From: Patescibacteria group bacterium
Lineage (GTDB): Bacteria; Patescibacteriota; Microgenomatia; UBA1400; MFAQ01
Direction: 5' to 3'
Length of the DNA: 64,000 bases
NCBI GenBank assembly: GCA_018819325.1
Contig: JAHJQJ010000083.1
Location: 1,067-65,066 of the forward strand
Numbering within the stretch: position 1 is the first letter of the stretch; every line of letters starts with the position of its first letter. Below, one piece after another: positions 12,370-30,384 of the stretch. The position numbers and the translations under genes are program-made. Under the pieces are notes generated by a model. It was given only the letters and a program-made list of their open reading frames with translations. It ran no database searches and was not told where the DNA came from.

Positions 12370-13527
12370 TCATTTTTTCTTCCAGATGATTTTGTTGTAC
12401 ATGATCCAGTTGTAGGGGAGGACGAGGAAAAGGATTATGAATGGGAGGAGTAATTGGCGATACTGGGCACCAAATACACTGACACCGATGGTGCCGACTA
12501 CAGTTTGAATAATTAAAGCGCCAGCTGAAGTGAAGTTGAACTGGAGGAACTTTTTAGTGAGGGCGGACAAGCCTTTGATTTTATCTGACTTGAAGGTCCA
12601 GATATTATTTAGAGTGAAGTTGGAGATGATGGCGGCTTCTGTGGAGACACCCCAAGCCATCCACTCTGGTTGACCTAGATTGGCAACTAACTGAAGTAAG
12701 GTAGCATTGACTAAGTAACCGATGAAACCTACCGTACCAAACTTTAAGAATTTTTTTACAAAAGGATCGTCATATAATCTTACGTGCAAAACTGTTTTTA
12801 GAGTGTCTGCAGCGGTTTTAGGTTCAATTTTTGACTCACCTACCGTGCGAAGGCCAAACTGTAGGGGAATTTCTTTTATTTTGGCTCCAAGTAAGACCAT
12901 TTTGAACAAAAACTCTAATTTGTAGGCGAAGCTTTTGGTGTAGAGATTGTCCATGTCCATTTTGTTTACAAAACCCTTGACTCTACTGGCCTTAAGACCG
13001 GTGGTGGGGTCGGTGATTTTGAAGAAGTTCTTGAAAGGGAAGAAGAGGATAAAACGGGCCGTAAAACCACCTACTTCTGAGAAGAAAACTCTTTTGAATC
13101 CCCAACCTTTGGGATTACTGCCACCTTTGATTTTTCTGGAACCCAAAACGTAGTCTGCGCCGTTTTCGATTTCTTTTAACATGGCGGGGATAGTTTCTGG
13201 TGGGTGTTGGAAATCGCTATCGAACTCTATGATTGTGTCTGCGTCTAATTTATTCATGGCTTCCTTGAAGCCCTTAACGTAAGCGTTACCTATACCGGCT
13301 TTTTCTTTGTTTAATAGTAAATAAAGGTCTTTGTATTTCTTTTGTTTTTCTTGAACTACTTTGTAGGTGCCGTCGGGTGAGGTGTCGTCGACTACCAATA
13401 ATTTACAGTGCCAGTTTTTTATTTGGGGAAAGGTTTTCTTAAATAGGTGATCAATCATCTTGCCGATTGAATCGACTTCGTTATATGTGGGGATGACTAC
13501 TACGGCGGTTTGTTTTTTGTTGTTCAT
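12370..13527 (-). CDS. GT2 Dpm1-like synthase fused to a C-terminal GtrA-like membrane domain
   Basis: VVVIPTYNEVDSI...VVDDTSPDGT...FDSDFQHPPE plus a C-terminal 4-TM GtrA-like tail; start at MNNKKQ. Confidence 0.75.
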   Translation of the reverse strand: MNNKKQTAVVVIPTYNEVDSIGKMIDHLFKKTFPQIKNWHCKLLVVDDTSPDGTYKVVQEKQKKYKDLYLLLNKEKAGIGNAYVKGFKEAMNKLDADTIIEFDSDFQHPPETIPAMLKEIENGADYVLGSRKIKGGSNPKGWGFKRVFFSEVGGFTARFILFFPFKNFFKITDPTTGLKASRVKGFVNKMDMDNLYTKSFAYKLEFLFKMVLLGAKIKEIPLQFGLRTVGESKIEPKTAADTLKTVLHVRLYDDPFVKKFLKFGTVGFIGYLVNATLLQLVANLGQPEWMAWGVSTEAAIISNFTLNNIWTFKSDKIKGLSALTKKFLQFNFTSAGALIIQTVVGTIGVSVFGAQYRQLLLPFIILFLVLPYNWIMYNKIIWKKK

Positions 13528-13738
13528 GGAGTAAGTATAGCATTTGGATATAGTTTGGTGCACCGACCATCTTGTTCAAACCAAGTTAAATCTAGTGGAA
13601 GGTTCTCACATAGCTTGGTTCCCAGATATGACAGGGTTTCTTTCATTTGATTGATTAAGGTTGATAACTGAATTGTATTATAAACTGTGGTGATCTGGGT
13701 GAGCGTGGTGCAACGACCCCCTGAGTAAATCTGGGTAT

Positions 13739-14317
13739 CTATTTTAAATAAACAGCATAAGGAGCTTTTAACTTACTGCTTGCAATTATATCTCGATATC
13801 TTGATTTCATACCTTGGCTATTTTTTTTAACTACACAAACAGTAGACGCTCCTTGTGATGTTTTTACAGATCTAGAATCATCGAAAAAATCCGAATATTG
13901 CCACAGATCAATCTTTATATTTTTAACAACACCAATCTCATCCAAAACAAGCCCTGTTGTATTGCTGTCTACTTTTCCGGTTACCTTAATTTCCTTAGGA
14001 ACATTTAACCAATTAACATTATCGTCAGAAAACTGTTGTGCTTTTGATATTGTTTTGGTTGGTTGGGCACCGCCTTTTTGAGATGGGGCAATAAAAAGAC
14101 AATAAATTTCTTGTGAATTACTAAGGGCAGTTTGACAGATTTGCTGAATTTGTCCTGTTTTAGCACGAAAAGACTTGATCAACCAAAATGTTTTCCCAGT
14201 GTTATTAATCTCTTGTCGTTTTCTATCGAGGATGCCAAAAAGTGTTTCTCCTGCGTGAACTCCCACCACACTTAAAACGAGAAATTTATTGTTTAGGATT
14301 TTTGAGATGTTCATCAC
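13739..14317 (-). CDS. Hypothetical protein (last ORF of the cassette-like array)
   Basis: 192 aa with no recognised domain; followed at 13699-13718 by a partial copy of the tail motif seen in other cassettes. Confidence 0.4.
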   Translation of the reverse strand: MMNISKILNNKFLVLSVVGVHAGETLFGILDRKRQEINNTGKTFWLIKSFRAKTGQIQQICQTALSNSQEIYCLFIAPSQKGGAQPTKTISKAQQFSDDNVNWLNVPKEIKVTGKVDSNTTGLVLDEIGVVKNIKIDLWQYSDFFDDSRSVKTSQGASTVCVVKKNSQGMKSRYRDIIASSKLKAPYAVYLK

Positions 14318-14343
14318 GATAGAATAGATACTCAGATTTATTT

Positions 14344-14439
14344 CGCCTAACGTTTCGGACTATACGAAGTCCTGATTCTGATTTTATCAGGATTTGGGTT
14401 AAATTTCTTCAAAATTTACCGTATAGTCCGTGTTAGGCG
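14344..14439. repeat. attC-like imperfect palindrome A (CGCCTAAC-GTTT-CGGACTATACG ... CGTATAGTCCG-T-GTTAGGCG)
   Basis: Ends match the integron inverse-core GCCTAAC and core GTTAGGC exactly; 11-bp inner stem; lies 9 nt after the stop of the upstream ORF. Confidence 0.5.
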
Positions 14440-14447
14440 ATGGAAAT

Positions 14448-14726
14448 TTATTCCGCTATACAAATTCTAAAAGTTCCCCAGCCAGTATAGCTTGAGGGGC
14501 GACCTCCAAGCTTACGGCATTCTTCATCATCTTCAACACCTTGATAAATCTTGACCATATATTTCTCTCTAGGCCCAGGACAATAGTCGCTACAAGCAAA
14601 GTGGTCAACAATAGGAGGTTTTTCTATGTCAGTCACCTCTGAACTTTTTGGAACCTTTGATAGAAATACAAAAGCCAAGACGACAATGATTGTTGCTGTG
14701 ATTGTTAAAACAATTAGTTTTTTCAT
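14448..14726 (-). CDS. Small secreted/membrane-anchored Cys-containing protein (cassette ORF)
   Basis: MKKLIVLTITATIIVVLAFVFL signal/TM region then CSDYCPGP...C...C. The longer ORF reaching 14906 is an artefact that reads through the palindrome. Confidence 0.4.
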   Translation of the reverse strand: MKKLIVLTITATIIVVLAFVFLSKVPKSSEVTDIEKPPIVDHFACSDYCPGPREKYMVKIYQGVEDDEECRKLGGRPSSYTGWGTFRICIAE

Positions 14727-14755
14727 AAATTCATTATAAAGGAATAAATTTATTT

Positions 14756-14857
14756 CACATAACGTTTGGGATATACGAAGTTTTTCTGTAGCGTAGTGAA
14801 AGAAAAATTTGGGTGAGGGGCGAGCCGAGCCCCGAACCGTATATCCCTTGTTATACG
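14756..14857. repeat. attC-like imperfect palindrome B (CACATAACGTTT-GGGATATACG ... CGTATATCCC-TT-GTTATACG)
   Basis: Same architecture as A, but the inner stem has a different sequence and still pairs. Confidence 0.45.
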
Positions 14858-14894
14858 CCCAGAACGAAAAGCGATATGATTTCTTATCGCTTAA

Positions 14895-14932
14895 GTGAAA
14901 GTACAACGGGGCGCGACCAAAGGGAGCGAGTT
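14895..14932. repeat. Conserved 38-nt tail motif GTGAAAGTACAACGGGGCGCGACCAAAGGGAGCGAGTT (a second copy is at 17431-17468)
   Basis: Two near-identical copies, each adjacent to an attC-like element. Confidence 0.5.
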
Positions 14933-14992
14933 CAAAAAATATTTTTCAACCTTCACTCTCTTAAGTCTCTCTGGGATAAATTTGTTTTCTCT

Positions 14993-15041
14993 TTTGGGCG
15001 AATGGCAGAGGGGAACCAAAGGGGTGAATGCCTGAGCCCAA
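14993..15041. repeat. Conserved structured motif TTTTGGGCGAAKGGCAGAGGGGAAYYAAAGGGGTGAATGCC (copy 1; copy 2 is at 16179-16231)
   Basis: Two copies, each about 30-110 nt downstream of a cassette ORF stop; nested stems GGGC/GCCC and GGCA/UGCC. Confidence 0.45.
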
Positions 15042-15084
15042 TTCATCTATCGCACTGTCTTTATTTTCAGCTTGGTTGTGTACC

Positions 15085-15882
15085 CTAATTATTACAAAAA
15101 TTGTTTTCAATTGGCTGTTTGATTTCTTTAACAAAGCCACCTGAGTTACCGTCATACCAAAGTTCGTAATAAGGTTGTGACGCCTTATCAGACGATGTAT
15201 CAGTCATTCTGACTTTTAATATAGCTTGATTAGTTTGAATTTCCCAGCCAAAACTTTTATCCCATGAGGTAGATGTGATTCCGTACACTTTTTTAGCAAG
15301 ACAGGGATAGTTTTGTATAGTATATACTCCGGCCTTCTCTTTTAAGAATTCATGATAAGCTATTTTGCTTAGGGTTTTGTAGGAATTTACCTTTATTGCA
15401 GTGGTTGGACCTTGGTAATTCATATCGTCATATTTAGATTTTGGTAAAGTAGTTTTTTCACCAATTACTTGAATGATTAAACCAGAATGACCATCCTCAA
15501 TATTGCCGAGCAAAGGAGTGTAGGATTTCATCTCAGAGTCCCAAAGTTTGTATCTTGGGCCACAACCTTCTGGGATCATGCAATTAGAAACAGTTGTAAA
15601 TATTCCGTAATAAACTTCTCCTGTAACATCGCGATTAACAGCTCCCGAAGATGGTAGTGGGGTTGGTTGTTGATTTTCTAGTGGTTGTTTTACTTGGTAG
15701 GATTTGTATCCTAATACTCCTGTTACACTGATAAGTAGAACAACAAGAGAGATTAATGTCCAAGGTTTTTTCTTAGGAGATGTGGGTTGCTGTGGTGGGG
15801 TTTGTGGTTCTATGGGAGTAGTAGTTGATTGAGGATCAGTAGTTATGGGGATTTGGTCTACTGTTGATTCGTTTGCTTGCAT
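15085..15882 (-). CDS. Membrane-anchored hypothetical protein (Pro/Thr-rich N-terminus, one TM) - cassette ORF
   Basis: 265 aa with no known domain. Confidence 0.45.
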   Translation of the reverse strand: MQANESTVDQIPITTDPQSTTTPIEPQTPPQQPTSPKKKPWTLISLVVLLISVTGVLGYKSYQVKQPLENQQPTPLPSSGAVNRDVTGEVYYGIFTTVSNCMIPEGCGPRYKLWDSEMKSYTPLLGNIEDGHSGLIIQVIGEKTTLPKSKYDDMNYQGPTTAIKVNSYKTLSKIAYHEFLKEKAGVYTIQNYPCLAKKVYGITSTSWDKSFGWEIQTNQAILKVRMTDTSSDKASQPYYELWYDGNSGGFVKEIKQPIENNFCNN

Positions 15883-15982
15883 GTTGTGATAATTGTAGCA
15901 CTTATTTGATTCCCTCTATAGATAACAAATTTGCTTCCCCCTGCTATCAACCTTCACTGGTTGAAAAATATTTTTTGAATTG

Positions 15983-16110
15983 CGTACAACGTTTCTGCGT
16001 ATGCGATGTTTGCCACTGCTATAATATCGCGAAGCGGTAGCAGTGGCAAATATGGGCGTAGGCTTGCGGAGGTACGGAGCAAGCTGTAGCCGCATACGCT
16101 GTGTTATATG
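15983..16110. repeat. attC-like imperfect palindrome D (CGTACAACGTTT-CTGCGTATGCG ... CGCATACGC-T-GTGTTATATG)
   Basis: Same architecture as A-C. Confidence 0.45.
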
Positions 16111-16178
16111 ATGTACATGTTTTCCTTTAGTTTCTTGAAAAGAAACTGCTCTTAAAAAGAATCTGCTTTTATTTTTCC

Positions 16179-16231
16179 GTTTTGGGCGAAGGGCAGAGGG
16201 GAATTAAAGGGGTGAATGCCCGTAGTCCAAA
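16179..16231. repeat. Second copy of the GGGCGAAGGGCAGAGGGGAATTAAAGGGGTGAATGCC motif
   Basis: Direct comparison with 14993-15041. Confidence 0.45.
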
Positions 16232-16344
16232 ACTCCCTGTTCTGCCTTTCTATTTACAGTAAAGCTTCATTAGCCGATGAACAATGAGAGTCTTTTCATA
16301 TTGATTTAAAAAAATCAGCAGATGATTTATTCGCGTATATGACA

Positions 16345-17091
16345 TTAAACGATTTCACAATAACATGGATTAAAAATTTTAATATTTTCCTGCGGATAAC
16401 CTCTTGAATTACACACAATTTTTGTATCCCCAATTTTATAACTTAGCTTCGTATGAACATGTCCATGAATCCATAATTGGATATTGTGAGATAGAATAAA
16501 TTCTTCAAGATTGCTAGCAAATGATGCAGAAAGTACGTCGTTTTTATATTCACAACCAATGGATTGCATACTTGGAGCGTGATGGGTAATCACAACATTC
16601 TTTTCGTGTTTCCTTTTTAGCAATTCACGGGATAACCAATTTTTGGATTTATAGTAAGCGTCTGCCGCAGACAATGGTGAGAATTTTTTGGAAGCTGAAT
16701 TCATTCGAATAATTCTAAAATCATTTATCTGTTGGGTTGCTATAACACTTGCGACATGAAAATCTCCATAAAGTTTAAAATCTGTCCAAAGCGTACAGCC
16801 TAAAAAATTAACCCCATTATATGTAAATACGTCATTTTCAAGAATATGAATATTTGTATTTTTAGCTTGATTCCGAATTTCTTCTAAAATATCTGGATAC
16901 GTATGATGGTAATATTCGTGATTTCCAATGATATACAAGACAGGGACACCAACATCCTGTCTTGTAATCCAATCAATGCCCTTTGCGCCTACATGAATAT
17001 CACCGGCTAATATCAATATATCCGCATCAGTTTTAGGGATTTTGAATTCTTCAAATTCGTTGTGAATATCACTGAGAATGTGGATTTTCAT
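16345..17091 (-). CDS. Metallophosphoesterase (calcineurin-like) - cassette ORF
   Basis: GDIH...GNHEY...ITHHAP...GHVH metal-ligand motifs. Confidence 0.75.
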   Translation of the reverse strand: MKIHILSDIHNEFEEFKIPKTDADILILAGDIHVGAKGIDWITRQDVGVPVLYIIGNHEYYHHTYPDILEEIRNQAKNTNIHILENDVFTYNGVNFLGCTLWTDFKLYGDFHVASVIATQQINDFRIIRMNSASKKFSPLSAADAYYKSKNWLSRELLKRKHEKNVVITHHAPSMQSIGCEYKNDVLSASFASNLEEFILSHNIQLWIHGHVHTKLSYKIGDTKIVCNSRGYPQENIKIFNPCYCEIV

Positions 17092-17278
17092 TTTATGGTG
17101 GTTAAATACTGGCAGTCAAGCCACTTAACACGAGGGCGACATAACAAATATTAAAATTAAAGCGTTTTCGCAACGGAGCGGAGAAAACTCCATATTTCCC
17201 CTCTATATAAAAGAAAAACAAAATCAGATTCTTTTTAAGAGCTGGGGCGATAGCCCCACAAAAGGAAAACATGTATTT

Positions 17279-17393
17279 CACATAACGTTTCTGTATATCT
17301 GATGTCGAAACGCTCTATGCTTGATTTTAGCAGAGCGTGAACGATATGGGTCGAGGAGGTGCAACCGACGAGCCAGATATACAGTGTTATGTG
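17279..17393. repeat. attC-like imperfect palindrome C (CACATAAC-GTTT-CTGTATATCTG ... CAGATATACAG-T-GTTATGTG)
   Basis: 8-bp outer stem and 11-bp inner stem, both perfect; followed by the tail motif at 17431-17468. Confidence 0.5.
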
Positions 17394-17485
17394 TCCCGAA
17401 CAAGGTTGCTAGAATTTTTAAGCAACCGAAGTGAGAGTGCAACGTGGTGCGACCAAAGGGAGCAAGTTGAGTGATATTCTTGAGA

Positions 17486-18337
17486 TCAGGAAAAAAGCAA
17501 GAAAAAAAATACAATCCATGTAATAAAGTATGGAATTATGAATTTCTTTCTTTTTTCTTTCCACTCTAGAAACGCTGGTTTGGTTGCCTTGAACTTGCCA
17601 GGAACTTTTTGGACAATGAAGGTCTTGTAAAGTTCGACCAACATCCGTTCGCCACCCAAACTGGCAACCAATAGTAGCGAATAATTAAAAGTGAAAAAAG
17701 AAAAAATTATGCCCCAAATACCACTAGCGATTGGACTGCGGAAAAACTTGATTCGCTCGAAACCTTCGATGGGCGCATCCTTCCATGCCCCACCACTGGC
17801 GGAACCAACTAGCCCTGCGAAGAAACCCCAGAATAAACCATTAAGTTGGTGATTGCCGAAATCTATCGTTAAAATTGAGGGCATGGAAAAGAGAAGCGAG
17901 ATCAGGAAAAGAAAGGCGACACCGATGAATAGTCTCAGAGACTTATTATCTATTGTGTTGCCAAAAATGTGGAGTCGCGAAGGTATCTTATACTTATCCT
18001 GTTTTTCTTCTCTCACAAAAGCTTTGAATGACTCGGTGAATATACGCTCCAAAGTGACGATAACTGCAAAGACAACTCCTAAGTTGACGCCAGTAATTTG
18101 AAAATATTGAAAGAAGAAAAACAGCAAGATACCGAGCGATGACCCGGCAACAATACTTCTAATAAATCTCTGAGACTGGAAATGCTCATAGAGCGAATCC
18201 TTGTACGCCCCCCAGCATGATGAAAGCAGTCCACTGACTGCTCCGATAATTCCATACTTTATTAATTCCATAATGAAAGTATAGTTGATCGCTACCCAAA
18301 CAACTAGAAGAAATAGTGTAAAAAGAATATCACTCAA
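17486..18337 (-). CDS. Polytopic membrane protein with an internal domain duplication - cassette ORF
   Basis: Two repeats of a G(A/L)VSG...W(G)AYKD...RFIRS-like unit. Confidence 0.5.
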   Translation of the reverse strand: MSDILFTLFLLVVWVAINYTFIMELIKYGIIGAVSGLLSSCWGAYKDSLYEHFQSQRFIRSIVAGSSLGILLFFFFQYFQITGVNLGVVFAVIVTLERIFTESFKAFVREEKQDKYKIPSRLHIFGNTIDNKSLRLFIGVAFLFLISLLFSMPSILTIDFGNHQLNGLFWGFFAGLVGSASGGAWKDAPIEGFERIKFFRSPIASGIWGIIFSFFTFNYSLLLVASLGGERMLVELYKTFIVQKVPGKFKATKPAFLEWKEKRKKFIIPYFITWIVFFFLLFS

Positions 18338-18340
18338 TTA

Positions 18341-18431
18341 CACATAACGTATCCAGCATAAAAGAAGTTTTTGCGAAGCAAAAATTTGGGTGAGTGCCGT
18401 AAGGCACGAACCTTTTATGCTGTGTTATACG
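18341..18431. repeat. attC-like imperfect palindrome E (CACATAACGT-ATC-CAGCATAAAAG ... CTTTTATGCTG-T-GTTATACG)
   Basis: Lies 3 nt from the start of ORF 17486..18337; its loop shares AAAAATTTGGGTGAG-hairpin-GAACC with element B, with a compensating hairpin change. Confidence 0.5.
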
Positions 18432-18462
18432 CTGTTGGTCGCTAAATAAATTGATCATTGTT

Positions 18463-19890
18463 TCACCAGGGAACTGTTCCTTTTTTCCAATATTGTGTTT
18501 GAAGCGATTGCATCAATTCCGACATCTCATTCTCATTCATTACCTGAAGAGTAGTTGCCAGAGCATCTATTGTATAAGATAATGTAATTCCCTCTACTAA
18601 TTGATATACGATCTTCAGTTCGTTTGCTTCATCAGGATATTTTTCTGTAGCAAAAACCCTAAAAGTAGCAGCAGTAATTTCACCCGTGCTGTTAAGAATG
18701 TTAATCAAATCTTGTTTGCATTGGTCTGAGAGATTACTTTCGTTTATAGTTTTTAATATCTCGTTCTTGATATTATCTTCATTTGCTCGCATCTGTTCGG
18801 AAATTTTGTTTAATAATTGAATCCTCCAAGTATGACCAGAAGGCATGTAATAGAATGGCGTTTTGTCAGGAGTATTGAATGAAAGTTTGTAGCCCCACGG
18901 TGCATATGGGATTTCTTCTGTTTGAAAGTATGATGTAAGTTGTACCTCATCATTTCCACCATATTCATTACACATAATTGGCACCTGAAAGTTGTTCTGA
19001 AATGTTTGATACTGCTGCACCTTACTTTGGCTCTCTCCAAGAGATAAGTAAGTATGGAATATATAAACAATGTTGTCTCCAAGGGAAGGTGGATTGAACA
19101 TACTGAGATCATAAGCATAATTGTTGCCATCTAAAAAAATTATGTGCTTATTATCAATTGTGCGAATAGCAGTAATGGCTTGTTGATATAATGAAACAAG
19201 TTGTGTACCTTCTGGTGCTTCTGGTTCATTGAGTAATTCATATCCAACCACTGTTGGCTCATCCTTATACCTTTGTGCCAAAATCTTCCATAAGTTGATA
19301 AATTGTTGCTGATAAGTAGTATTACTCCATAAATAAGCATTCCCATCGCTGTCTGAATGATACGCAGTATTCTGACTACCCGGGGCAACTTGCAAATCAA
19401 TCATAACATAAATTCCATTATTTTTTGCCCAAGAAATTGCTTCATCTAATTTTGTAAGTTGTCCTTCTTGTACATAGCGATGATGAAATGGTAAGCGGAT
19501 AAAATTAAGTCCCATAGATTTTGCACCGGCAAAATCTTCTGCTAAAATGTAATTTGCTAAAATTAAATTAAAGAAATTGTCAACTTCTGTCTTAGGCATT
19601 CTTTTCTCCATCTCATTGCGTAGTTGATGTTCAGGATTATTAGGTAATTCCAATGCTCCACCTTCCCAGAGTAGCCAGCAACCAAAGTTCACCCCTTTCA
19701 AGAATACTTTCTCACCTGATTCATTTACAATATCTTTTCCTTGAGTCTTTAAGAAGGATAAATTTGTAGTGGGTGGTGTAGGTGCAATTATTGTTTCCTT
19801 CTTATTACGACAATAGAAAAAGGCAAACGCTCCAAAAAGAAGCAAAATTACCATTAAAACCCCAATTTTTTTCATATTTTTTCTTTTCAT
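18463..19890 (-). CDS. Glycoside hydrolase family 5 (cellulase/beta-glycanase-like), secreted - first cassette ORF
   Basis: Catalytic acid/base LLNEPEAP and nucleophile IMCNEYGG; N-terminal signal/TM. Alternative start at 19875. Confidence 0.8.
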   Translation of the reverse strand: MKRKNMKKIGVLMVILLLFGAFAFFYCRNKKETIIAPTPPTTNLSFLKTQGKDIVNESGEKVFLKGVNFGCWLLWEGGALELPNNPEHQLRNEMEKRMPKTEVDNFFNLILANYILAEDFAGAKSMGLNFIRLPFHHRYVQEGQLTKLDEAISWAKNNGIYVMIDLQVAPGSQNTAYHSDSDGNAYLWSNTTYQQQFINLWKILAQRYKDEPTVVGYELLNEPEAPEGTQLVSLYQQAITAIRTIDNKHIIFLDGNNYAYDLSMFNPPSLGDNIVYIFHTYLSLGESQSKVQQYQTFQNNFQVPIMCNEYGGNDEVQLTSYFQTEEIPYAPWGYKLSFNTPDKTPFYYMPSGHTWRIQLLNKISEQMRANEDNIKNEILKTINESNLSDQCKQDLINILNSTGEITAATFRVFATEKYPDEANELKIVYQLVEGITLSYTIDALATTLQVMNENEMSELMQSLQTQYWKKGTVPW

Positions 19891-19921
19891 AAATTTACCC
19901 CCTACTTTAAGCGACCAATTG

Positions 19922-19998
19922 CGTATAACTAGGGTTTATGCAAACTTTTTGTTTGGATAAACACTGGGGTTTGCGTGAAATGCAAACTTGTGTTATAT
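19922..19998. repeat. Sixth attC-like/attI-position palindrome (GCGTATAAC ... ATGCAAAC x2 ... GTGTTATAT) between the array and the recombinase gene
   Basis: Same end motifs as elements A-E; internal hairpins GTTTGC/GCAAAC and CAAAC/GTTTG. Confidence 0.35.
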
Positions 19999-20034
19999 TT
20001 TTTGTTAGTAATTACTTACATAATATCATAAATA

Positions 20035-20848
20035 ATGATGAGGGTTCTTGAGAAAACAGACAGGTTGTTGCGATTGAGGGGTTATAGTGCTAAAACGCGA
20101 AAAAGTTATTTGTTATATATTAAAAATTATTTATTATTTGCAAAACTACGGAAGCTACAGGAAAGAGATCGAGCCATTGAGCAATATTTGTTGGATAAAC
20201 AACGTAGAGGACTTGCTCCCCAAACCATAAATCTAGCATTAAATGCTGTTAAATTTATGTACAGAAAGGTATTGGATGACAAAAAACCTATTAAGTTTAA
20301 ATGTACCAAGAGAAACAAAAGATTGCCTGTAGTACTTTCTCGTAATGAAATTCAAAAAATAATTGCAGTGATTCAGAATCCAAAGCACAAACTAATGCTT
20401 TCTTTGGCTTACGCGACTGGACTGCGGGTTAGTGAGGTTGTTAACTTGAGGACTGGAGATCTTGCCTGCGACGAGTTGACAGTACATATTAAAAATGCAA
20501 AAGGGAAAAAAGACCGTATAAGTATTTTCCCTGAAAAACTGATTTCTGATATTACAAATTTGATTAAAGAGAAATCTGTGGATAGTTTTGTTTTTGAAAG
20601 TGCTCGGGGAGGTAAGTTAACCACCACTTCTTTGCAAAAGGTTTTTAGAAATGCTTTGGAAAAATCTAAGATACAGAAACCAGCCACGTTTCATAGTTTG
20701 AGGCACAGTTTTGCTACCCACTTGTCTGGAAAATGGAGTTGATGTAAGATACGTGCAGGAGTTGTTGGGACATGCGAATATTAGAACTACGCAAATATAT
20801 ACTAAAGTGACAAATCCTAAATTAAAAAATATTAAGAGTCCGTTGTAA
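20035..20848 (+). pseudogene. Tyrosine site-specific recombinase (XerC/XerD/IntI superfamily) with a +1 frameshift near 20725
   Basis: ORF 20035..20742 ends ...[16 protein letters not shown]. Shifting one base restores the canonical C-terminus [28 protein letters not shown] with catalytic Tyr, ending at TAA 20846-20848. The ~35-aa IntI-specific extra domain before HxLRH is absent. Confidence 0.6.
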
Positions 20849-20852
20849 AAAG

Positions 20853-20897: not shown

Positions 20898-21659
20898 ATG
20901 AGGATTGATGTTTTGACGCTTTTTCCAGAAATGTTTGAGGGACCGTTTAGTGAGAGTATTTTAAAAAGGGCTCAGGAGGATGGGAAAATTGATATACGGG
21001 TACATAATTTGAGAGACTGGGCGGAAGATAAACATAGGACTACTGATCTGCCTCCGTATGGCGGAGGACCTGGAATGGTGATGAAGATTGATGTGATTGA
21101 TAGGGCGGTGGAGGGGTTGAAAAAACAGATGGATTCCACCCCGGGGGAGACTTCCGCTCCGCTACAGCCACCCGCCGGGGAGAAATCCCATGTGGTGCTA
21201 CTTGACACCAAGGGGTCTGTTTATAACCAGAGGAAGGCCGTGGAGCTTTCTAGGTTTGATCATTTGATATTGATTGCTGGGCATTATGAAGGAGTAGATC
21301 ACAGGGTACATGAGTATGTGGCAGACGAGGTTGTTTCTATTGGTGAGTTTGTTTTAACTGGTGGAGAGATTCCGGCCATGGTGGTGGTAGACAGTGTGGT
21401 TAGACTGGTTCCTGGAGTGCTAGGGAATGCGGAGAGTTTGGAGGAAGAGTCGTATTCTATGATGATGGATTCCACCCCGGGGGTTCGCCGCAGGCGCAAC
21501 ACAACCCCCGGGGAGAAATCCTTGGAATATCCGCAGTATACTAGGCCGGAGGAGTATAAAGACTGGAAAGTACCAGAGGTGCTTTTGTCTGGAGATCATA
21601 AAAAAATTGAAGAGTGGAGGAGGGGTTATTTTTTGGGGAGACCTACAGGAATCAAGTAA
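20898..21659 (+). CDS. trmD: tRNA (guanine37-N1)-methyltransferase TrmD, carrying two in-frame GC-rich insertions
   Basis: [13 protein letters not shown]...LLSGDH are TrmD hallmarks. The insertions encode [20 protein letters not shown] and [20 protein letters not shown]. Confidence 0.85.
21131..21190. repeat. R4 GC-rich palindromic insertion (CCACCCCGGGGGAG-N-GCCACCCGCCGGGGAGA) inside trmD
   Basis: Other copies at 21466-21525 (in trmD) and 25325-25385 (in the surface-protein gene); the GC-rich islands stand out in the AT-rich genes. Confidence 0.7.
21466..21525. repeat. R4 GC-rich palindromic insertion, second copy in trmD
   Basis: CCACCCCGGGGG...CCCCCGGGGAGAAATCC. Confidence 0.7.
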
Positions 21660-26650: not shown

Positions 26651-27005
26651 GATAAGGAAACCTTGATTTACTTATCTGCACAGTGATAAAGATTTATTTT
26701 AAGGTTCACTTACCCTCTAAAAAGTGAATAGATTAGTATAAGTAGATCACTAATAATTTATCTACTTTTCGACCATTAGTAAGGGTCGGCTAAATACATT
26801 GCTGCACTTACACCTCCCTCCTATCAACGTAGTAATCTCCTACGGGTCTTTCAGTCGCCCGAAGGCGACTATGGATTTCTCATCTTGGGAACGGCTTCCC
26901 GCTTAGATGCATTCAGCGGTTATCACGTACCAATGTAGCTACCCAGCAGTGCTCTTGACAGAAACAACTGGTTCACTAGGGATTGGCTCATCTCGGTCCT
27001 CTCGT

Positions 27006-27309
27006 CATGTACTCCTCTGTTACCAGAGGCATAGACTATACCTTCATCCTCCTAAAAATCTTAGGATAGGATGTTTGCCGTATTATAAGTGTGTATATTT
27101 ATCCATCAAAGATGGAGGAACACTTATCTTCACCTTGAACATTACTTCAAGGATTCAGTCGTTACAGGGATTATCTTATTTTAAAACATGATAATCTTCC
27201 CTCGGTATTGTCCTCTAAAGCCCTGGGACCATGGCTATAATTATAGAGGATTTCACCGATTTGGACAAATTTTTCTTTCTCCACATTACTGTGGAATGTA
27301 GCATTTTTT
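27006..27309 (-). ncRNA. Putative ORF-less group I intron (~304 nt) splitting the sarcin-ricin loop (E. coli ~2655)
   Basis: Removing it restores CTCTAGT|ACGAGAGGACC. The 5' exon ends in U and the intron ends in G; a P1 helix UAGU/GCUA is possible; it shares GGGAAGAU, GACUGA and AUAGUC segments with the second intron. Confidence 0.6.
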
Positions 27310-27344
27310 ACTAGAGACAAACTCCCTCAAAAATCCAACGCTGG

Positions 27345-27390
<46 letters not shown>

Positions 27391-27461
27391 ACGTAGCGCT
27401 TTAATGGGCGAACAGACCAACCCTTGGGAGCTTCTTCACCCCCAGGATGCGCTGAGCCGAC

Positions 27462-27727
27462 CAAATGGCTCCATCTATTACTAGTGGTTTGGACTATATC
27501 TTTCAAAATTAATTACCTTTTCTTATCCTTTTGGTAACTAAATTGAGTTGGCGTGTGTACAGTTCTCCAATGAAGAACTATCTCAATTCCGATTAAATCG
27601 GAATATCAGTCTCTACGGGGATCTCGATCATGGATCGGATCTTCCCACGGGGTTAACCTTTGGTTGTTCATTTCCAAGGCATTCTCCGTTATTAGCCAAC
27701 TTTATCCTCGACATTCGTTCTTGGTTT
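27462..27727 (-). ncRNA. Putative ORF-less group I intron (~266 nt) after the equivalent of E. coli U2504 in the peptidyl-transferase ring
   Basis: Removing it restores ACCTCGAT|GTCGGCTCA. The 5' exon ends in U and the intron ends in G; a P1 helix CCUCGAU/GUCGAGG with a U-G pair at the splice site is read directly from the sequence. Confidence 0.65.
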
Positions 27728-29755
27728 ATCGAGGTAGCGAACTGCGCCGTCGCTATGGACGCTCAGGCGCAACTACTCTGTTATCCCTGGCGTAGCTTTT
27801 ATCCGTTAGGCCCGGAGCTTCCCACGAAGCTCACGAGGATCACTTAGACCTACTTTCGTATCTGCTTGACTTGTTTGTCTCACAGTTAAGCACCCATATA
27901 CCTATATGCTTACACTCCGATTTCCATCCGGAGCTCAGGGTACCTTTGTACGCTTGCGTTACTCTTTAGCAAGCAACCTCCCCAGTTAAACTACCTTCCA
28001 GACAGTGTCCCCGGTGTTGTTTGCAAACACCTTAGGTAAGAAATACATAAAGAAAAGAGAGGTATTCCACTGACGGGCTGAATATAAATATTCAGCCCTC
28101 CCTCCTATTCTCGACAGTTACAATACATATTTCAGTGCCAAGTAGTAGTAAAGCTGCACAGGGTCTTTTTGTCCTGCTGCCAGTAGGCCGCATCTTCACA
28201 GCCATTTCAAATTCGCCGAGCTCTTTCTCAAGACAGTTGAAGGGTGGTTAAACCATTCGTGCACGTCACCAATTAAGTGACAAGGAATTTCGCTACCTTT
28301 GGACTCTTATAGTTAAAGCCGCCCTTCACCGGGGCTTCAATCACAGGCTCAATATCCGAAGACATATCACCCGCTCATTTAACCTTCCGGCAGTGGGCAG
28401 GTCGCAGCCCGTATACTTAAGCTTTCGCTTTGGCACAGACCTGTGTTTTTGATAAACAGTCCCCCCTCAATCATTTGCTGTGGCCCGAATCGTGCAAGCA
28501 CGTTCCGGGCAGGGCATCTCGCATAGCTTACGCCCAGTTAATTTGCCTAGTTCCTTAAGAAAGATTCGCTCGTCCACCTTAGTCTACTCGACCTACCCAC
28601 CTGTGTCGGTTTTCGGTACGGATTGTATAGTTTCTATTTGCGACACTTTTCTCGGAAACTGAAGTCATCCAACTCTCTATTGATTACTCTCAAGATTGTA
28701 TTTACAGTTCGTGTTAACGCTCTAGCGGATTTGCCTACTAGAACTGCCTTACTGCTTAAACAGTGCATGTTCAACGCACTGCTCGGATTATCCAACTTCG
28801 TCATGCCCCAACTTAAAACGAAACTACACAAGGACCGGAATATTAACCGGTAATCCATCGGCTACGCCTTTTGGCCTCACCTTAGGGTCGCCTAACCCAA
28901 TGCTGACAAACATGGCGTTGGAAACCTTGGGTATTCGGTGGGGAAGATTCTCACTTCCCTCTCGCTACTCATGCCGACATTCTCACTTCTTGCCGCTCCA
29001 ACAAGCCTTACAGCTTGCCTTCAATGCTACAAGAACGCTCCCCTACCACTTTATATAAATATAAAATTCTTAAGTTCGGTAGTATATTTTAGCCTCGTTA
29101 TATCTTCGGTCACATATCTCTCGGCTAGTGAGCTGTTACGCTTTCTTTCAAGGATGGCTGCTTCTAAGCCGACCTCCTAGGTGTTTGAGAGATGATGTAT
29201 CCTTTTCCACTTAATATACATTTAGAGACCTTACTTGAAGATCTGGGATGTTTCCCTTTCGCCTCTGGAGCTTAGCCCCCAGACACTGAGTCCCTTGCAA
29301 TAAAACGGGGTATTCTTAGTTTGATTGGAAGTAAAGGTTTTACCCCTCAAATCCATTCAGTGCTTTACCCCCCCGTTTCTTAACAAAAGCCTACGCCTAG
29401 ACGTATTTCGGGGAGAACCAGCTATTTCCGAGTTCGTTTGGCATATTACCTCTAACCACAAGTCATCCGAGCCATTTGCGACTGACATCGGTGCGGGCCT
29501 CCACTAAAACTTAATTTAGCTTCACCCTGCTCATGGTTAGCTCACTCGGTTTCGGGTTTATACCACACAACTTAGCGCCCTGTTAGGACTTGGTTTCCCT
29601 TCGACTCCACTGCGGAGCAGCTTAATCTTGCTGTATGGAATAACTCGTCGGCTCATTCTTCAATAGGCACGCCATCATCCTCGATAAAATCGGGACTCTG
29701 GCTGCTTGTTAGCAATCAGTTTCAGGTACTTTTAAACGGGCTACCAACCCTGCTA

Positions 29756-29794
<39 letters not shown>

Positions 29795-30384
29795 ATAAGA
29801 GTAATTAGTCTTGGACCGTGGTCGGCCCGGATTCAATCTGGAGTTTGCCGTCTCCAGACCTACTTAGGAGTCTGACTATTGTTTTGTTGACAGTTTTGCG
29901 TACAAGACTTTCACTTTCTATGGTCGTCTATTCCAAAACGTTCTGCTACCTTATAAAACAAATATTGTTAGTCCTACAACCCCTGATATAAATACCAGGT
30001 TTAGACTCATCCCTTTTCGCTCGTCGCTTACTAAGGGACTCTCGTTCGATTTCTTTTCCTCTGGGTACTAAGATATTTCAGTTCCCCAGGTTCCCACTCC
30101 GACATAAAGTCGAAAGTACTCCGGTATAAACCGGAGTGGGTTACCCCATTCGGACACCGTCGGATCATAGGTTCTTGCCACCTACCCGACGACTTTCGCA
30201 GGCTTGAAACGTCCTTCATCGGCTCTTATTGCCAAGGCATCCACTGATTGCGTTATGAGTACATAAATTATTATTTGATGCGATCTACTTTTCTAATCTA
30301 TTCACTTTTTAATGAGCAAGTGCTCTGATTTATATAGAGCTAACGTTTTTACCTAAAATTAAGTAAGAAGGCTAGATCTACTGT

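Follow-up and report, generated by a model that had tools for sequence, protein, structure and literature searches.

The 64 kb stretch of DNA analysed here (the window) carries an array of six gene cassettes headed by a tyrosine recombinase gene, and we consider it very likely (a probability of roughly 0.85) that the array is a gene-cassette platform of the chromosome, operating in the manner of an integron although its recombinase is from a different clade and its recombination sites are of a different type. As the platform adjoins the same recombinase family across Patescibacteria, gene capture by this system appears to be widespread; in the literature that we searched we found no description of an integron-like platform with a Xer-type recombinase in Patescibacteria.

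Organization of the Array

A first-pass annotation of the window, made from sequence alone, had read this region as an integron-like array of six co-oriented, unrelated ORFs, and the ORF calls and Pfam searches agreed with this reading. The features, from the recombinase end, are as follows.

20035..20848, + strand: tyrosine recombinase gene of a predicted Xer/XerA-like 'candidate phyla' family, pseudogene (PF00589, PF13495)
19919..20034, + strand: attI-like site (element F), palindrome 19922-19999, from a comparison of the upstream regions of 80 homologous loci
18463..19890, - strand: cassette 1 ORF, GH5 glycoside hydrolase (PF00150, E 5e-32); cassette ~18348-19928
18341-18431, + strand: attC-like site E of the GH5 cassette, 77.7 bits with the covariance model
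17486..18337, - strand: cassette 2 ORF, 283-aa multi-pass membrane protein; cassette ~17286-18347
17279-17393, + strand: attC-like site D of the membrane-protein cassette, 105 bits with the covariance model
16345..17091, - strand: cassette 3 ORF, metallophosphoesterase (PF00149); cassette ~15990-17285
16166..16250, + strand: structured motif copy 1, 94.7 bits, with covariation, in cassette 3, past the stop of the ORF and before attC-like site C
15983-16110, + strand: attC-like site C of the metallophosphoesterase cassette, 82 bits with the covariance model
15085..15882, - strand: cassette 4 ORF, 265-aa protein without a Pfam family, with a single membrane span at the N terminus; cassette ~14763-15989
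14978..15061, + strand: structured motif copy 2, 74 bits, in cassette 4
14756-14857, + strand: attC-like site B of the 265-aa protein cassette, 93.9 bits with the covariance model
14448..14726, - strand: cassette 5 ORF, 92-aa small membrane or secreted protein; cassette ~14351-14762
14344-14439, + strand: attC-like site A of the 92-aa protein cassette, 95.7 bits with the covariance model
13739..14317, - strand: cassette 6 ORF, 192-aa (or 176-aa) hypothetical protein, last in the array
13649-13753, + strand: tentative attC-like site at the array end, degenerate and surviving as a remnant, 5.5 bits (E 0.48 in 351 nt)

Four of the six ORFs reached no threshold match in Pfam, the membrane protein of cassette 2 giving one weak sub-threshold match to DUF1290. 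In a database search the nearest non-self homolog of the cassette 3 metallophosphoesterase was 54% identical, followed by proteins from cyanobacteria and other phyla at 46–50% identity. For none of the window cassettes did we find a homolog in another array.

Sites A–E are 91–128 nt each, and A–F share a common plan, R-box(8) - GTTT/GTAT - L-box(10-12) ... L' - T - R', the ends of site A reading CGCCTAAC...GTTAGGCG on the + strand. The attC-like palindromes thus read as first described, and when folded as single-stranded DNA all six were far more stable than shuffled sequences (z -4.0 to -9.1), the + strand being the more stable in each case (6/6); the 4-nt versus 1-nt asymmetry between the boxes was likewise found, on the 5' arm. 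A covariance model built from A–E and run over the window scored these sites at 78–105 bits and gave no other match above 10 bits, except the palindromic reverse of A (21.5 bits). Gaps between a site and the next start codon at four junctions are 31, 3, 29 and 26 nt, and 8 nt separate a stop codon from site A.

Some details of the initial description required correction. Each ORF had been said to be followed by a site, which is so on the 3' side of five of the six; the 192-aa ORF has only the degenerate remnant at 13649-13753, which retains the central TCTGGGTGAGCG...GCAACGACC motif, has lost its stems, and tentatively is probably the array end beside a core glycosyltransferase gene. On the 5' side a site is present for all six ORFs. 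The sites whose two ends do not match one another are B, C and E rather than B, D and E, D being perfectly self-complementary.

The attI-Like Site

The sixth palindrome had been placed at the attI position. The A–E covariance model does not match it, and it is no copy of that family but a conserved attI-type site in its own right. Its cassette-side arm CGTATAA runs up to the predicted crossover, which falls between A19928 and C19929; past this lie a 7-bp central region (CTAGGGT) and the recombinase-side arm TTATGCAAAC (19936-19945), then a second ATGCAAAC copy at 19980-19987, followed by the recombinase start codon. A motif AAC|T[CG]GTT[TA]TTAT was present in 69 of 79 loci, 75–149 nt before the recombinase start codon, and nine contigs start 2–8 nt to the left of the attI junction.

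A Site Family Upstream of Homologous Recombinases

We ran a refined covariance model on 80 species-representative genome loci, and it identified 101 site copies, all on the recombinase strand and all within the 322 kb upstream of the recombinases, while the 586 kb downstream held none. At least one site was found in 40 of the 44 loci having at least 1.5 kb upstream. A second set of 98 further loci replicated this (99 matches, all upstream and all on the + strand), which brings the total to ~200 further copies in ~180 loci near homologous recombinases, so that the integron-like array first noticed in the window belongs to a recurrent arrangement. The arrays reach up to 11 sites, each of 90–200 nt. 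Their spacers (n = 58) have a median length of 726 nt and are 79% coding, and in 54 it is the strand opposite the recombinase that carries the longest ORF; hardly any of the 58 cassette proteins are related to one another, and 52 Pfam families are represented.

The sites conserve structure rather than sequence: the L-box helix is 93.6% paired, with compensatory changes in 10 of its 11 pairs, and G-T wobbles outnumber A-C mismatches (113 vs. 65). The inner part of the site has conserved sequence (AAGT, AAATTTGGGTGA and GAAC), far more than canonical attC sites have, which may point to a further factor or to a function as RNA.

Cassette Boundaries and Turnover

The crossover had been put at a G|TT-type position, with one R-box half contributed by the neighboring cassette, and the R-box halves indeed pair across cassettes as an AA|C crossover predicts. 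The left R-box of a site was complementary to the right R-box of the preceding site, across the ORF, with 1.02 mismatches; against the right end of its own site there were 2.31, in a reverse control 2.52 and against non-neighbors of the same locus 2.37 (0/20000 permutations). Two independent sets gave the same pairing (1.10 vs. 2.38 and 1.14 vs. 2.05, each 0/10000); the R boxes of integrated sites are hybrids.

Near-identical strains turn over their cassettes at this junction. Two loci (L142 and L146) are 99.7–99.8% identical to a third (L145) over 950 nt of recombinase and attI, and homology ends 8–10 nt to the left of the junction C, with >2.5 kb of unrelated sequence upstream; a further pair (L148 and L150) loses homology in like manner, and in locus pairs of 91–96% identity it ends at -3 to -13. 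These ends locate the crossover to within a few nucleotides. In addition, L112 has an extra 561-nt cassette between two sites that is absent from the 99.3% identical L111, the distal R-box half being 2 nt off the prediction for a simple one-step excision or insertion, and a 208-nt cassette piece is common to L051 and L182 at different array positions. Together, the R-box pairing, the homology ends and the one-cassette indel show, by sequence comparison, integron-type cassette exchange. Identical gene order in all relatives had been named as an argument against such exchange; while near-identical strains elsewhere differ in array content at the junction, the window population itself is invariant in cassette order, its five assemblies being 99.97–100% identical in their overlap.

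The Recombinase and Its Relation to Xer/dif Systems

The gene at 20035..20848, previously called as a divergent tyrosine recombinase, does encode one, but as written the protein ends at 235 aa: because of a +1 frameshift near 20724-20742 the gene falls into two reading frames, of 235 aa and 31 aa, and a 1-nt correction gives a protein of 270 aa. The identical frameshift is found in five independent assemblies that are 99.97–100% identical to the window, and the window copy is therefore probably frozen, the array probably being a record that could be moved only in trans. Many chromosomal integrons likewise have an inactivated integrase beside a frozen array. Across Patescibacteria lineages the recombinase family shares 57–78% identity, which seems unusually conserved in comparison to housekeeping Xer proteins.

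The corrected protein is colinear with XerA, scoring 211 bits against the XerA model NF040815 (cut-off 220) and 142.5 bits over its full length against the XerA structure 4a8e, and it is, by its sequence, Xer/XerA-like and not an IntI. This raises an alternative that we consider unlikely, in which the attI-like site is a dif site used by a housekeeping Xer, and the cassettes are IMEX-like elements that hijack this enzyme rather than parts of a dedicated gene-capture platform. Besides the size of the recombinase and its colinearity with XerA, the platform shares with the single-recombinase systems (XerA/dif, XerS/difSL and XerH/difH) the dif-like arm–7 bp–arm layout of the attI site, whose arm TTATGTGAAAT resembles the E. 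coli XerD arm, TTATGTTAAAT. In XerS/difSL systems dif adjoins the recombinase gene, the phages CTX and TLC hijack Xer at the Vibrio dif site, and the CTX attP is a folded single-stranded hairpin that mimics dif and is recombined by the Xer enzyme.

By description, the recombinase probably belongs to the 'Cand' subgroup, Xer-related simple tyrosine recombinases from candidate phyla, which Smyshlyaev et al. (2021, PMC8138268) discuss in the context of class-specific recombinases with a possible role in compensating for Xer; the account of 'Cand' in the sections of that paper concerned with it includes no cassette array, attI or attC-like site.

However, several observations argue against a housekeeping role. 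GC skew is positive on both flanks of the array in the window and the - strand holds most genes on both, so the locus is not a terminus; one Roizmanbacteria MAG has at least two copies (L031 and L072), and an attI accompanies each of the two; in the window lineage the gene is a pseudogene; and the chromosomal neighborhood of the platform is not conserved among loci. An ordinary dif-associated Xer had been named at the outset as the reading to exclude, and while the sequence is Xer/XerA-like, its position off the GC-skew switch and its multiple copies in one MAG mean that the enzyme is not of that kind. Rather than self-contained elements, the inserts are cassettes of one ORF each that have a covarying site family dedicated to them, and where Xer/dif systems have a single resolution site, the arrays here have as many as 11 sites and a high turnover. 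As the array would be integron-like even if the enzyme also resolved dimers, this alternative overlaps the integron-like platform that we favor and is not exclusive of it.

The pdif modules of Acinetobacter plasmids are also discrete gene modules, lying between XerC/XerD sites in varying contexts. However, pdif sites are 28-bp duplexes that alternate in orientation, form no hairpin and have neither a dedicated recombinase nor an attI beside them, whereas the sites described here are 90–200 nt, folded, in direct orientation and beside a recombinase gene.

Comparison with Canonical Integrons

The likeness to integrons, sedentary chromosomal integrons and CALINs included, is extensive: an attI lies beside a tyrosine recombinase gene, the arrayed cassettes are co-oriented, functionally unrelated and mostly of one ORF, following the same cassette logic, and each cassette ends in an imperfect palindrome with RYYYAAC/GTTRRRY ends in which structure is conserved more than sequence, with hybrid R boxes and a crossover at AA|C on the cassette-relative 'bottom' strand. 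With respect to the integrase gene the sites are oriented as in class 1 integrons, e.g., the blaOXA-1 attC reads CGTCTAACGTTT...GTTGGGCG on the intI1 sense strand. The top NCBIfam match of the recombinase was to the 'integron integrase' model TIGR02249 and its top PDB match was to VchIntIA (2a3v). One might thus suppose that this is a canonical integron, with a true IntI and ordinary attC sites, merely in an unusual phylum, which we think improbable, somewhat more so than the Xer/dif alternative. The TIGR02249 match (214 bits) falls below the curated cut-off (265), is split into two stretches and is essentially equaled by the XerA model, and the IntI-specific domain is absent, ~40 residues of IntI1 and IntI4 around it having no counterpart. 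As the recombinase is Xer/XerA-like and has no IntI domain, the platform is not a canonical integron.

The sites also differ. Six genuine class 1 attC sites went unrecognized by our site model (the best scoring 9.3 bits, E 6.3, over the R-box only). In integrons the IntI domain reads extrahelical bases, and attC sites have an unpaired, roughly symmetric central spacer (UCS) together with G/T extrahelical bases (EHB) on the 3' arm, whereas here the asymmetry is on the 5' arm as a 3-nt bulge, a TAT core is conserved in the L box, and the branched tip contains a linker, AAATTTGGGTGA, that is conserved as well. The attI is a simple dif-like core site, and the host range is Patescibacteria, together with some records labelled DPANN archaea.

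A reading of the palindromes as structural repeats between genes (REP-like elements, terminators or structured RNA), with the recombinase an unrelated neighbor, is very improbable: while they are strongly structured with conserved inner motifs, lie just past an ORF in terminator position and co-occur with a second structured motif, this reading is already contradicted by their distribution (0 of ~200 copies outside recombinase-upstream arrays and none on the other strand), by R-box halves that pair across the ORF and not within the element, as neither RNA nor terminator models predict, and by the homology of near-identical strains ending at AA|C, and the sites gave no Rfam match and no enrichment of terminator-like sites.

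Proposed Mechanism

In the integron-like platform that we propose, a ~270-aa Xer/XerA-like tyrosine recombinase would be encoded beside a double-stranded, dif-like core site, attI, of the general form nnnnTAA (cassette-side arm), 7-bp central region, and TTATSCAAAC (recombinase-side arm). As a rule a cassette would comprise one promoter-distal ORF and one 90–200 nt site. When single-stranded, on the strand corresponding to the sense strand of the recombinase gene, the site is predicted to fold into an R-box stem (nnnTAAC/GTTAnnn), a 3-nt TTT bulge, an 11-bp L-box stem with the TAT core, and a branched, variable tip with the linker noted above. The recombinase would cut between A and C of 5' nnnTAA|C, and exchange of the cut strand with attI would insert a cassette, whereas exchange with a second folded site would excise one; given exchange at this position, every integrated site would be a hybrid whose 5' R-box half comes from the neighboring cassette. 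We infer that the adjacent recombinase is the acting enzyme, that its substrate is folded single-stranded rather than duplex DNA, and that the strand used is the one named above.

A Second Structured Motif

The additional structured motif of cassettes 3 and 4 has the conserved consensus GTTTTGGGC-GAA-GGGCA-GAGGGGAAnnAAAGGGGTGAA-TGCCC-GnA-GCCCAAAAC.

Layout of the window array

The array of the window lies between a core glycosyltransferase gene (12370–13563) and trmD (20898–21659), and its six minus-strand ORFs encode a GH5 glycoside hydrolase, a 283-aa membrane protein, a metallophosphoesterase, and proteins of 265, 92 and 192 aa. The window is part of a Patescibacteria (CPR) contig, and its recombinase and metallophosphoesterase match NCBI records that bear the label Patescibacteria group bacterium. 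The other features are as follows.

Sites and recombinase gene of the window array
14344–14439, plus strand, attC-like site A, A–E family
14756–14857, plus strand, attC-like site B, A–E family
15983–16110, plus strand, attC-like site C, A–E family
17279–17393, plus strand, attC-like site D, A–E family
18341–18431, plus strand, attC-like site E, A–E family
19922–19999, plus strand, element F, at the head of the array and adjoining the recombinase gene; differs from A–E
20035–20848, plus strand, tyrosine recombinase gene

Each of A–E consists of an R-box (CACATAAC-like), GTTT, an L-box of 10–12 nt, two variable hairpins linked by ATtTGGGt, CC, L', T and R' (GTTATGTG-like). A covariance model built from the five sites and run unfiltered over the 64 kb yielded A–E alone, and the proposal of the first-pass annotation, six co-oriented unrelated ORFs with sites between them and a divergent tyrosine recombinase, describes a real array. 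Some of its details needed revision: the recombinase gene is present on the plus strand but is frameshifted; the ORFs have a 3' site except the last (192 aa), which has only a degenerate remnant behind it; and the sites with non-self-complementary ends are B, C and E rather than B, D and E, D being self-complementary. Folding of both strands, as had been suggested, showed that the plus strand folds better than the minus strand for every element of the window, and as single-stranded DNA all of them are far more stable than shuffled sequences (z −4.0 to −9.1).

A search of Rfam (gathering cut-off and E ≤ 1) returned no family for the sites or for a second structured motif of the arrays (described below). 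The string ATAACGTWT alone is not distinctive, with 4 matches versus 1.2 expected. Two repeats, D3 and D6, were considered as degraded sites and rejected, as the site model matched neither; D3 is a separate structured motif. Promoter and terminator scans gave counts equal to those in shuffled sequence. A candidate for a Pc promoter, which in integrons lies in or near intI/attI and drives the cassettes, is a sigma-70-like match on the minus strand (20054–20025) within the 5' end of the recombinase gene, though promoter-like matches in general were no commoner than in shuffles.

The same module in homologous loci

In 80 species-representative genome loci around homologues of the window recombinase, the window-derived model identified 101 elements, and a refined model gave the same number of significant matches. 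All 101 lie on the recombinase strand and within the 322 kb upstream of the gene, with none in 586 kb downstream; at least one element was present in 40 of the 44 loci having at least 1.5 kb of upstream sequence, the largest arrays seen holding seven. An independent set (80 metagenome and 18 IMG/VR loci) added 99 matches of unchanged polarity. In these loci no element lies outside an array upstream of a recombinase homologue; occurrence outside ORF–site arrays had been named as part of the evidence that would count against the proposal. Their consensus, TttcnnaTAAC...GTTAtnnG, fits the RYYYAAC...GTTRRRY ends of attC sites, and they are imperfect palindromes in which structure is kept over sequence: in the 101 elements 93.6% of the L-box helix is paired, with compensatory changes at 10 of 11 pairs. 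On the plus strand there are 113 G-T wobbles and only 65 A-C mismatches, which points to the plus strand as the one that would be folded.

Two loci with archaeal labels, L058 (Pacearchaeota) and L085 (Altiarchaeales), encode members of the same recombinase family (58–60% identity) with sites upstream, two strong matches in L058 (66 and 60 bits) and one weak match in L085. MAG labels being unreliable, these loci reflect either misbinning or a real presence in DPANN-type archaea.

Cassette content and hybrid R boxes

Of 58 spacers between sites, 54 have their longest ORF on the strand that does not encode the recombinase; the median length is 726 nt, and the ORF covers 79% of it. Only two similar pairs were found among the 58 cassette proteins, which are almost all unrelated to one another and to the window cassettes and belong to 52 Pfam families, among them methyltransferases, hydrolases, GNAT, NUDIX, radical SAM and GmrSD proteins and a lipoprotein. 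As in integrons, these are short, mostly single-ORF, co-oriented and unrelated cassettes.

In integron cassettes strand exchange takes place at AA|C of the 5' R box (PMC7439510). Were the same true here, the 5' R-box half of an integrated site would belong to the neighbouring cassette, and its complement would be found in the adjoining site beyond the ORF, in the 3' R box there, and not in the 3' R box of the site itself. We compared R-box complementarity in 52 adjacent pairs from 25 loci.

Mean R-box mismatches in adjacent pairs
Adjacent site beyond the ORF: 1.02
3' end of the same site: 2.31
Reverse control: 2.52
Non-neighbours within the same locus: 2.37

Neighbour mismatches totalled 53, against 126.5 ± 6.5 in 20,000 permutations, none of which was as low. 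This was replicated in the metagenome set (neighbour 1.10 versus own 2.38) and in the IMG/VR set (1.14 versus 2.05), with none of 10,000 permutations as low in either. The two ends of a given site were no more complementary than random pairs, so the arrays have been assembled from independently acquired cassettes. In the window alone, with five junctions, the signal is weak: the GH5 and membrane-protein cassettes fit perfectly, two junctions have one mismatch and one has three. The earlier suggestion of hybrid sites with crossover within the R box is thus upheld, and the mismatch test, together with the breakpoints and the one-cassette indel described below, indicates crossover at A|C and the cassette as the mobile unit.

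The IMG/VR contigs of this comparison (L087–L104, filed as viral) have distant XerA-like recombinases (33–41% identity) that are free of the IntI insert. Upstream of these genes are arrays of up to 11 related, simpler sites (e.g., L093, 1–8900), in which the neighbour rule also holds; in L093 the cassette ORFs are on the recombinase strand, opposite to the arrangement in Patescibacteria. A reading of the window gene as a phage integrase was rejected, since IMG/VR contains no relatives closer than these.

The attI site and array turnover

Nearly every homologue is preceded by a conserved sequence, nnnnTAAC|T[CG]GTT[TA]TTATnCnAAn, found in 69 of 79 loci at 75–149 nt before the start codon. Element F, which had been described as a sixth palindrome in the attI position, is the window version of this attI-type site (CGTATAAC|TAGGGTTTATGCAAAC), but it stands outside the A–E family. 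The attI reads as a putative duplex core site: its cassette-side arm varies but ends in TAA, the central region measures 7 bp, and the arm on the recombinase side, TTATSCAAAC, is conserved. This last arm occurs a second time about 40–50 nt beyond the first.

Nine contigs from independent assemblies start 2–8 nt left of the AA|C position, the outcome expected of a de Bruijn assembler when the population differs in sequence beyond that point. Direct comparisons of assembled loci confirmed array turnover. L142 and L146 are 99.7–99.8% identical to L145 over the 950 nt of recombinase and attI, and homology then ends 8–10 nt left of the junction C (the C after the predicted crossover), with more than 2.5 kb of unrelated sequence upstream and sites in both versions; L148 and L150 behave in the same way. 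In pairs of 91–96% identity (L049/L051/L054/L182, L154/L156 and L134/L140) homology ends at −3 to −13, so that breakpoints overall fall 3–13 nt left of the junction C. L112 differs from its 99.3% identical relative L111 by one additional 561-nt unit flanked by two sites, the distal half of the R box being off by two positions from the single-step prediction, and L051 and L182 have a 208-nt cassette piece in common at unequal distances from attI. The motif, the contig breaks and the divergence of the arrays mark attI, beside the recombinase gene, as the preferred insertion point.

A decayed copy in the window

The comparison of related genomes that had been called for revealed near-identical loci differing at the junction and one single-cassette indel. 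In the window population itself, the frameshift of the recombinase gene is outside any homopolymer run and identical in five assemblies from different samples; cassette order is invariant across these assemblies wherever they overlap the array, and the last site is degraded. The most fitting view of the window array is that of a platform now inactivated; many chromosomal integrons likewise have decayed integrases. DNA of the window is also present in ENA, Logan and two NCBI MAG assemblies, and exact-protein look-ups for the window cassettes returned the same population alone (99.97–100% identical to the window). No homologues of these cassettes were found in the 80 genome loci. In a database search, relatives of the metallophosphoesterase were at most 54% identical, and an exact 35-nt search for the window's own attI gave no match in JGI metagenomes.

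Other assemblies of the population have contig ends at window positions 17200, 17358, 19892 and 20105–20207, that is, inside or beside site D, 30 nt left of the attI junction, and within the 5' part of the recombinase gene. These ends hint at unresolved repeats or minor variants.

A recombinase between XerA and IntI

The frameshift-corrected product is 270 aa and has thousands of homologues; the best 120 listed, self-match aside, are 64–78% identical and 267–309 aa long, those with names being annotated as belonging to many Patescibacteria lineages. Among NCBIfam models it scored 214 bits against the integron integrase TIGR02249, in two stretches and below the cut-off of 265, and 211.3 bits against the archaeal XerA NF040815, a near miss (cut-off 220) colinear with the model. 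Among solved relatives, VchIntIA (2a3v) matched with 149.8 bits, again in two stretches with IntI4 residues about 214–239 unmatched, and Pyrococcus XerA with 142.5 bits over its full length. In a BlastP alignment with genuine IntI1 from a Klebsiella plasmid (30% identity), the 47 gap positions fall mainly in a single block that faces IntI1 residues about 217–251, and the IntI-specific additional domain around patch III is missing from the window recombinase. The protein is therefore not an IntI; it lies between XerA and IntI, without the feature that defines the latter.

Another reading is that of a chromosomal dif site with IMEX-like inserts, whose enzyme would be of the same type as that of an integron-like system. 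We regard it as improbable, for neither the location nor the copy number fits it well, nor does the fact that the inserts are cassettes. The gene does not look like an ordinary dif-associated Xer, as had been allowed for: in the one window looked at, GC skew is positive on both flanks of the array, giving no terminus signature; the one Roizmanbacteria MAG looked at has two copies, each with its own attI; the neighbourhood of the recombinase loci is not conserved; and the window copy is a pseudogene. Genes on either side of the window array are mostly on the minus strand. Conserved synteny with trmD was rejected, trmD occurring in only 4 of 80 loci and at varying positions.

Comparison with canonical attC sites

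In canonical attC sites the R and L boxes are separated by an unpaired central spacer, and G/T bases are extrahelical (PMC7439510). Six genuine class 1 attC sites went unrecognised by the refined site model; the highest score was 9.3 bits (E 6.3) for that of blaOXA-1, a match confined to the R box with the AACGTTT start in common; from it, the polarity of canonical attC relative to the integrase gene is the same as that of our sites. When we folded genuine class 1 attC sites they had unpaired spacers of about 5–6 nt in both arms and an extra base on the 3' arm. The asymmetry noted in the first-pass annotation, 4 nt versus 1 nt between the boxes, does exist (GTTT in the 5' arm faces a single T in the other), but the resulting 3-nt bulge is on the 5' arm, and the geometry is not that of canonical attC. 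Further differences lie in the L box, whose TAT core is invariant, and in the tip, which is branched and has the conserved junction sequences AAGT, AAATTTGGGTGA and GAAC. The sites are related to canonical attC yet distinct from it, and with the IntI-specific domain also missing, a canonical integron is a very unlikely description of these loci. That the elements are simply structural repeats or RNAs has next to no probability, as it would leave unexplained the complementarity between neighbours, the homology limited by the junction and the fact that, relative to the recombinase gene, the elements keep without exception to a single side and a single strand.

In our reading, the plus strand when folded would mimic a duplex attI or dif-like site: one arm would end in TAA, the bulge would shorten the central region, and the second arm would carry TATGCGAA, resembling the attI arm TATGCAAA. 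A bolder interpretation, to which we give a probability of roughly 0.6, is that Patescibacteria, and possibly some DPANN archaea and their viruses, have an unrecognised class of integron with an insert-less Xer/XerA-like integrase and attC-type sites that are folded dif mimics.

Implications and prior reports

By definition an integron has IntI, with the extra domain of that enzyme, and whether integrons arose from Xer-like recombinases, and how, is an open question. If this bolder interpretation is true, cassette capture through folded single-stranded sites needs no IntI-specific domain, and such capture is either older than that domain or evolved twice; a widespread cassette platform whose recombinase is between XerA and IntI in sequence and lacks the domain would be a concrete, testable intermediate or convergent case. 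The platform points to one way in which ultra-small, host-dependent bacteria could gain genes; how they acquire accessory genes is, to our knowledge, poorly characterised. Annotation pipelines would gain a recombinase-plus-site signature, which may account for orphan attC arrays and for contig breaks beside these genes in MAGs; many "orphan" attC clusters, and "integron-type" recombinases in metagenomes that lack recognised attC, may belong to such systems. Compact new structure-specific recombination sites would also be on offer for engineering.

The literature searched (integrons, attC or integron integrase with Patescibacteria, CPR or Saccharibacteria; XerA with attC) contained no account of such arrays, and one may exist elsewhere. 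Three papers come nearest. A passage of Smyshlyaev et al. 2021 (PMC8138268) discusses an Xer-related "Cand" subgroup from candidate phyla beside recombinases possibly compensating for Xer. In the 75 archaeal MAGs reported by Ghaly et al. 2022, with Nanoarchaeota among the phyla, attC sites numbered 539 and IntIs only six; the supplementary tables of the archaeal-integron paper held no sequence matching the A–E site family. In a 2026 permafrost study, IntegronFinder detected no complete integron on 97.4% of contigs with "integron-type" recombinases, and attC detection was suggested as limiting.

Other conserved motifs

The second structured motif has the form GTTTTGGGC-GAA-GGGCA-GAGGGGAAnnAAAGGGGTGAA-TGCCC-GnA-GCCCAAAAC and is placed between the ORF stop and the site. 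Copies occur at 16166–16250 and 14978–15061 of the window, in L014 (6332–6416), L026 (7859–7941) and L039 (3165–3247), five times in L083, and elsewhere. All 20 significant copies are inside arrays, on the recombinase strand and 50–140 nt from a site; pairing in the motif amounts to 94%, compensatory changes occur at 11 of 14 pairs, and identity between species reaches 94%.

A 40-nt repeat (…GTGCAACG.GG.GCGACCAAAGGGAGC.AGTT) at 14893–14932 and 17429–17468 of the window (88% identity) begins 36 nt right of sites B and D. L026, L066 and L086 hold short matches 16–19 nt right of their sites, and the repeat appears to extend the flank of one subtype of site. At 15963–15982 and 14931–14951 of the window, and in L079, L042, L030, L024, L014 and L140, there is a leader, GTTGAAAAATATTTTTTGAA, that is AT-rich and nearly palindromic. 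In several sites and attI junctions it directly touches the 5' half of the R box, where the cassette begins, and it could be an operator or promoter carried by the cassette. The 5' untranslated part of cassettes from several species, just within the site or attI junction, contains a conserved segment of about 50 nt (86–93% identity), located at 17151–17207 of the window and in L055 (295–341), L083 (9752–9789), L033 (4679–4728), L039 (3928–3956) and L079 (5586–5616). Away from the array, the 23S rRNA gene of the window (26756–30266) has a group I intron at 27013–27341 (61 bits), with a 5S rRNA and a tRNA gene nearby.
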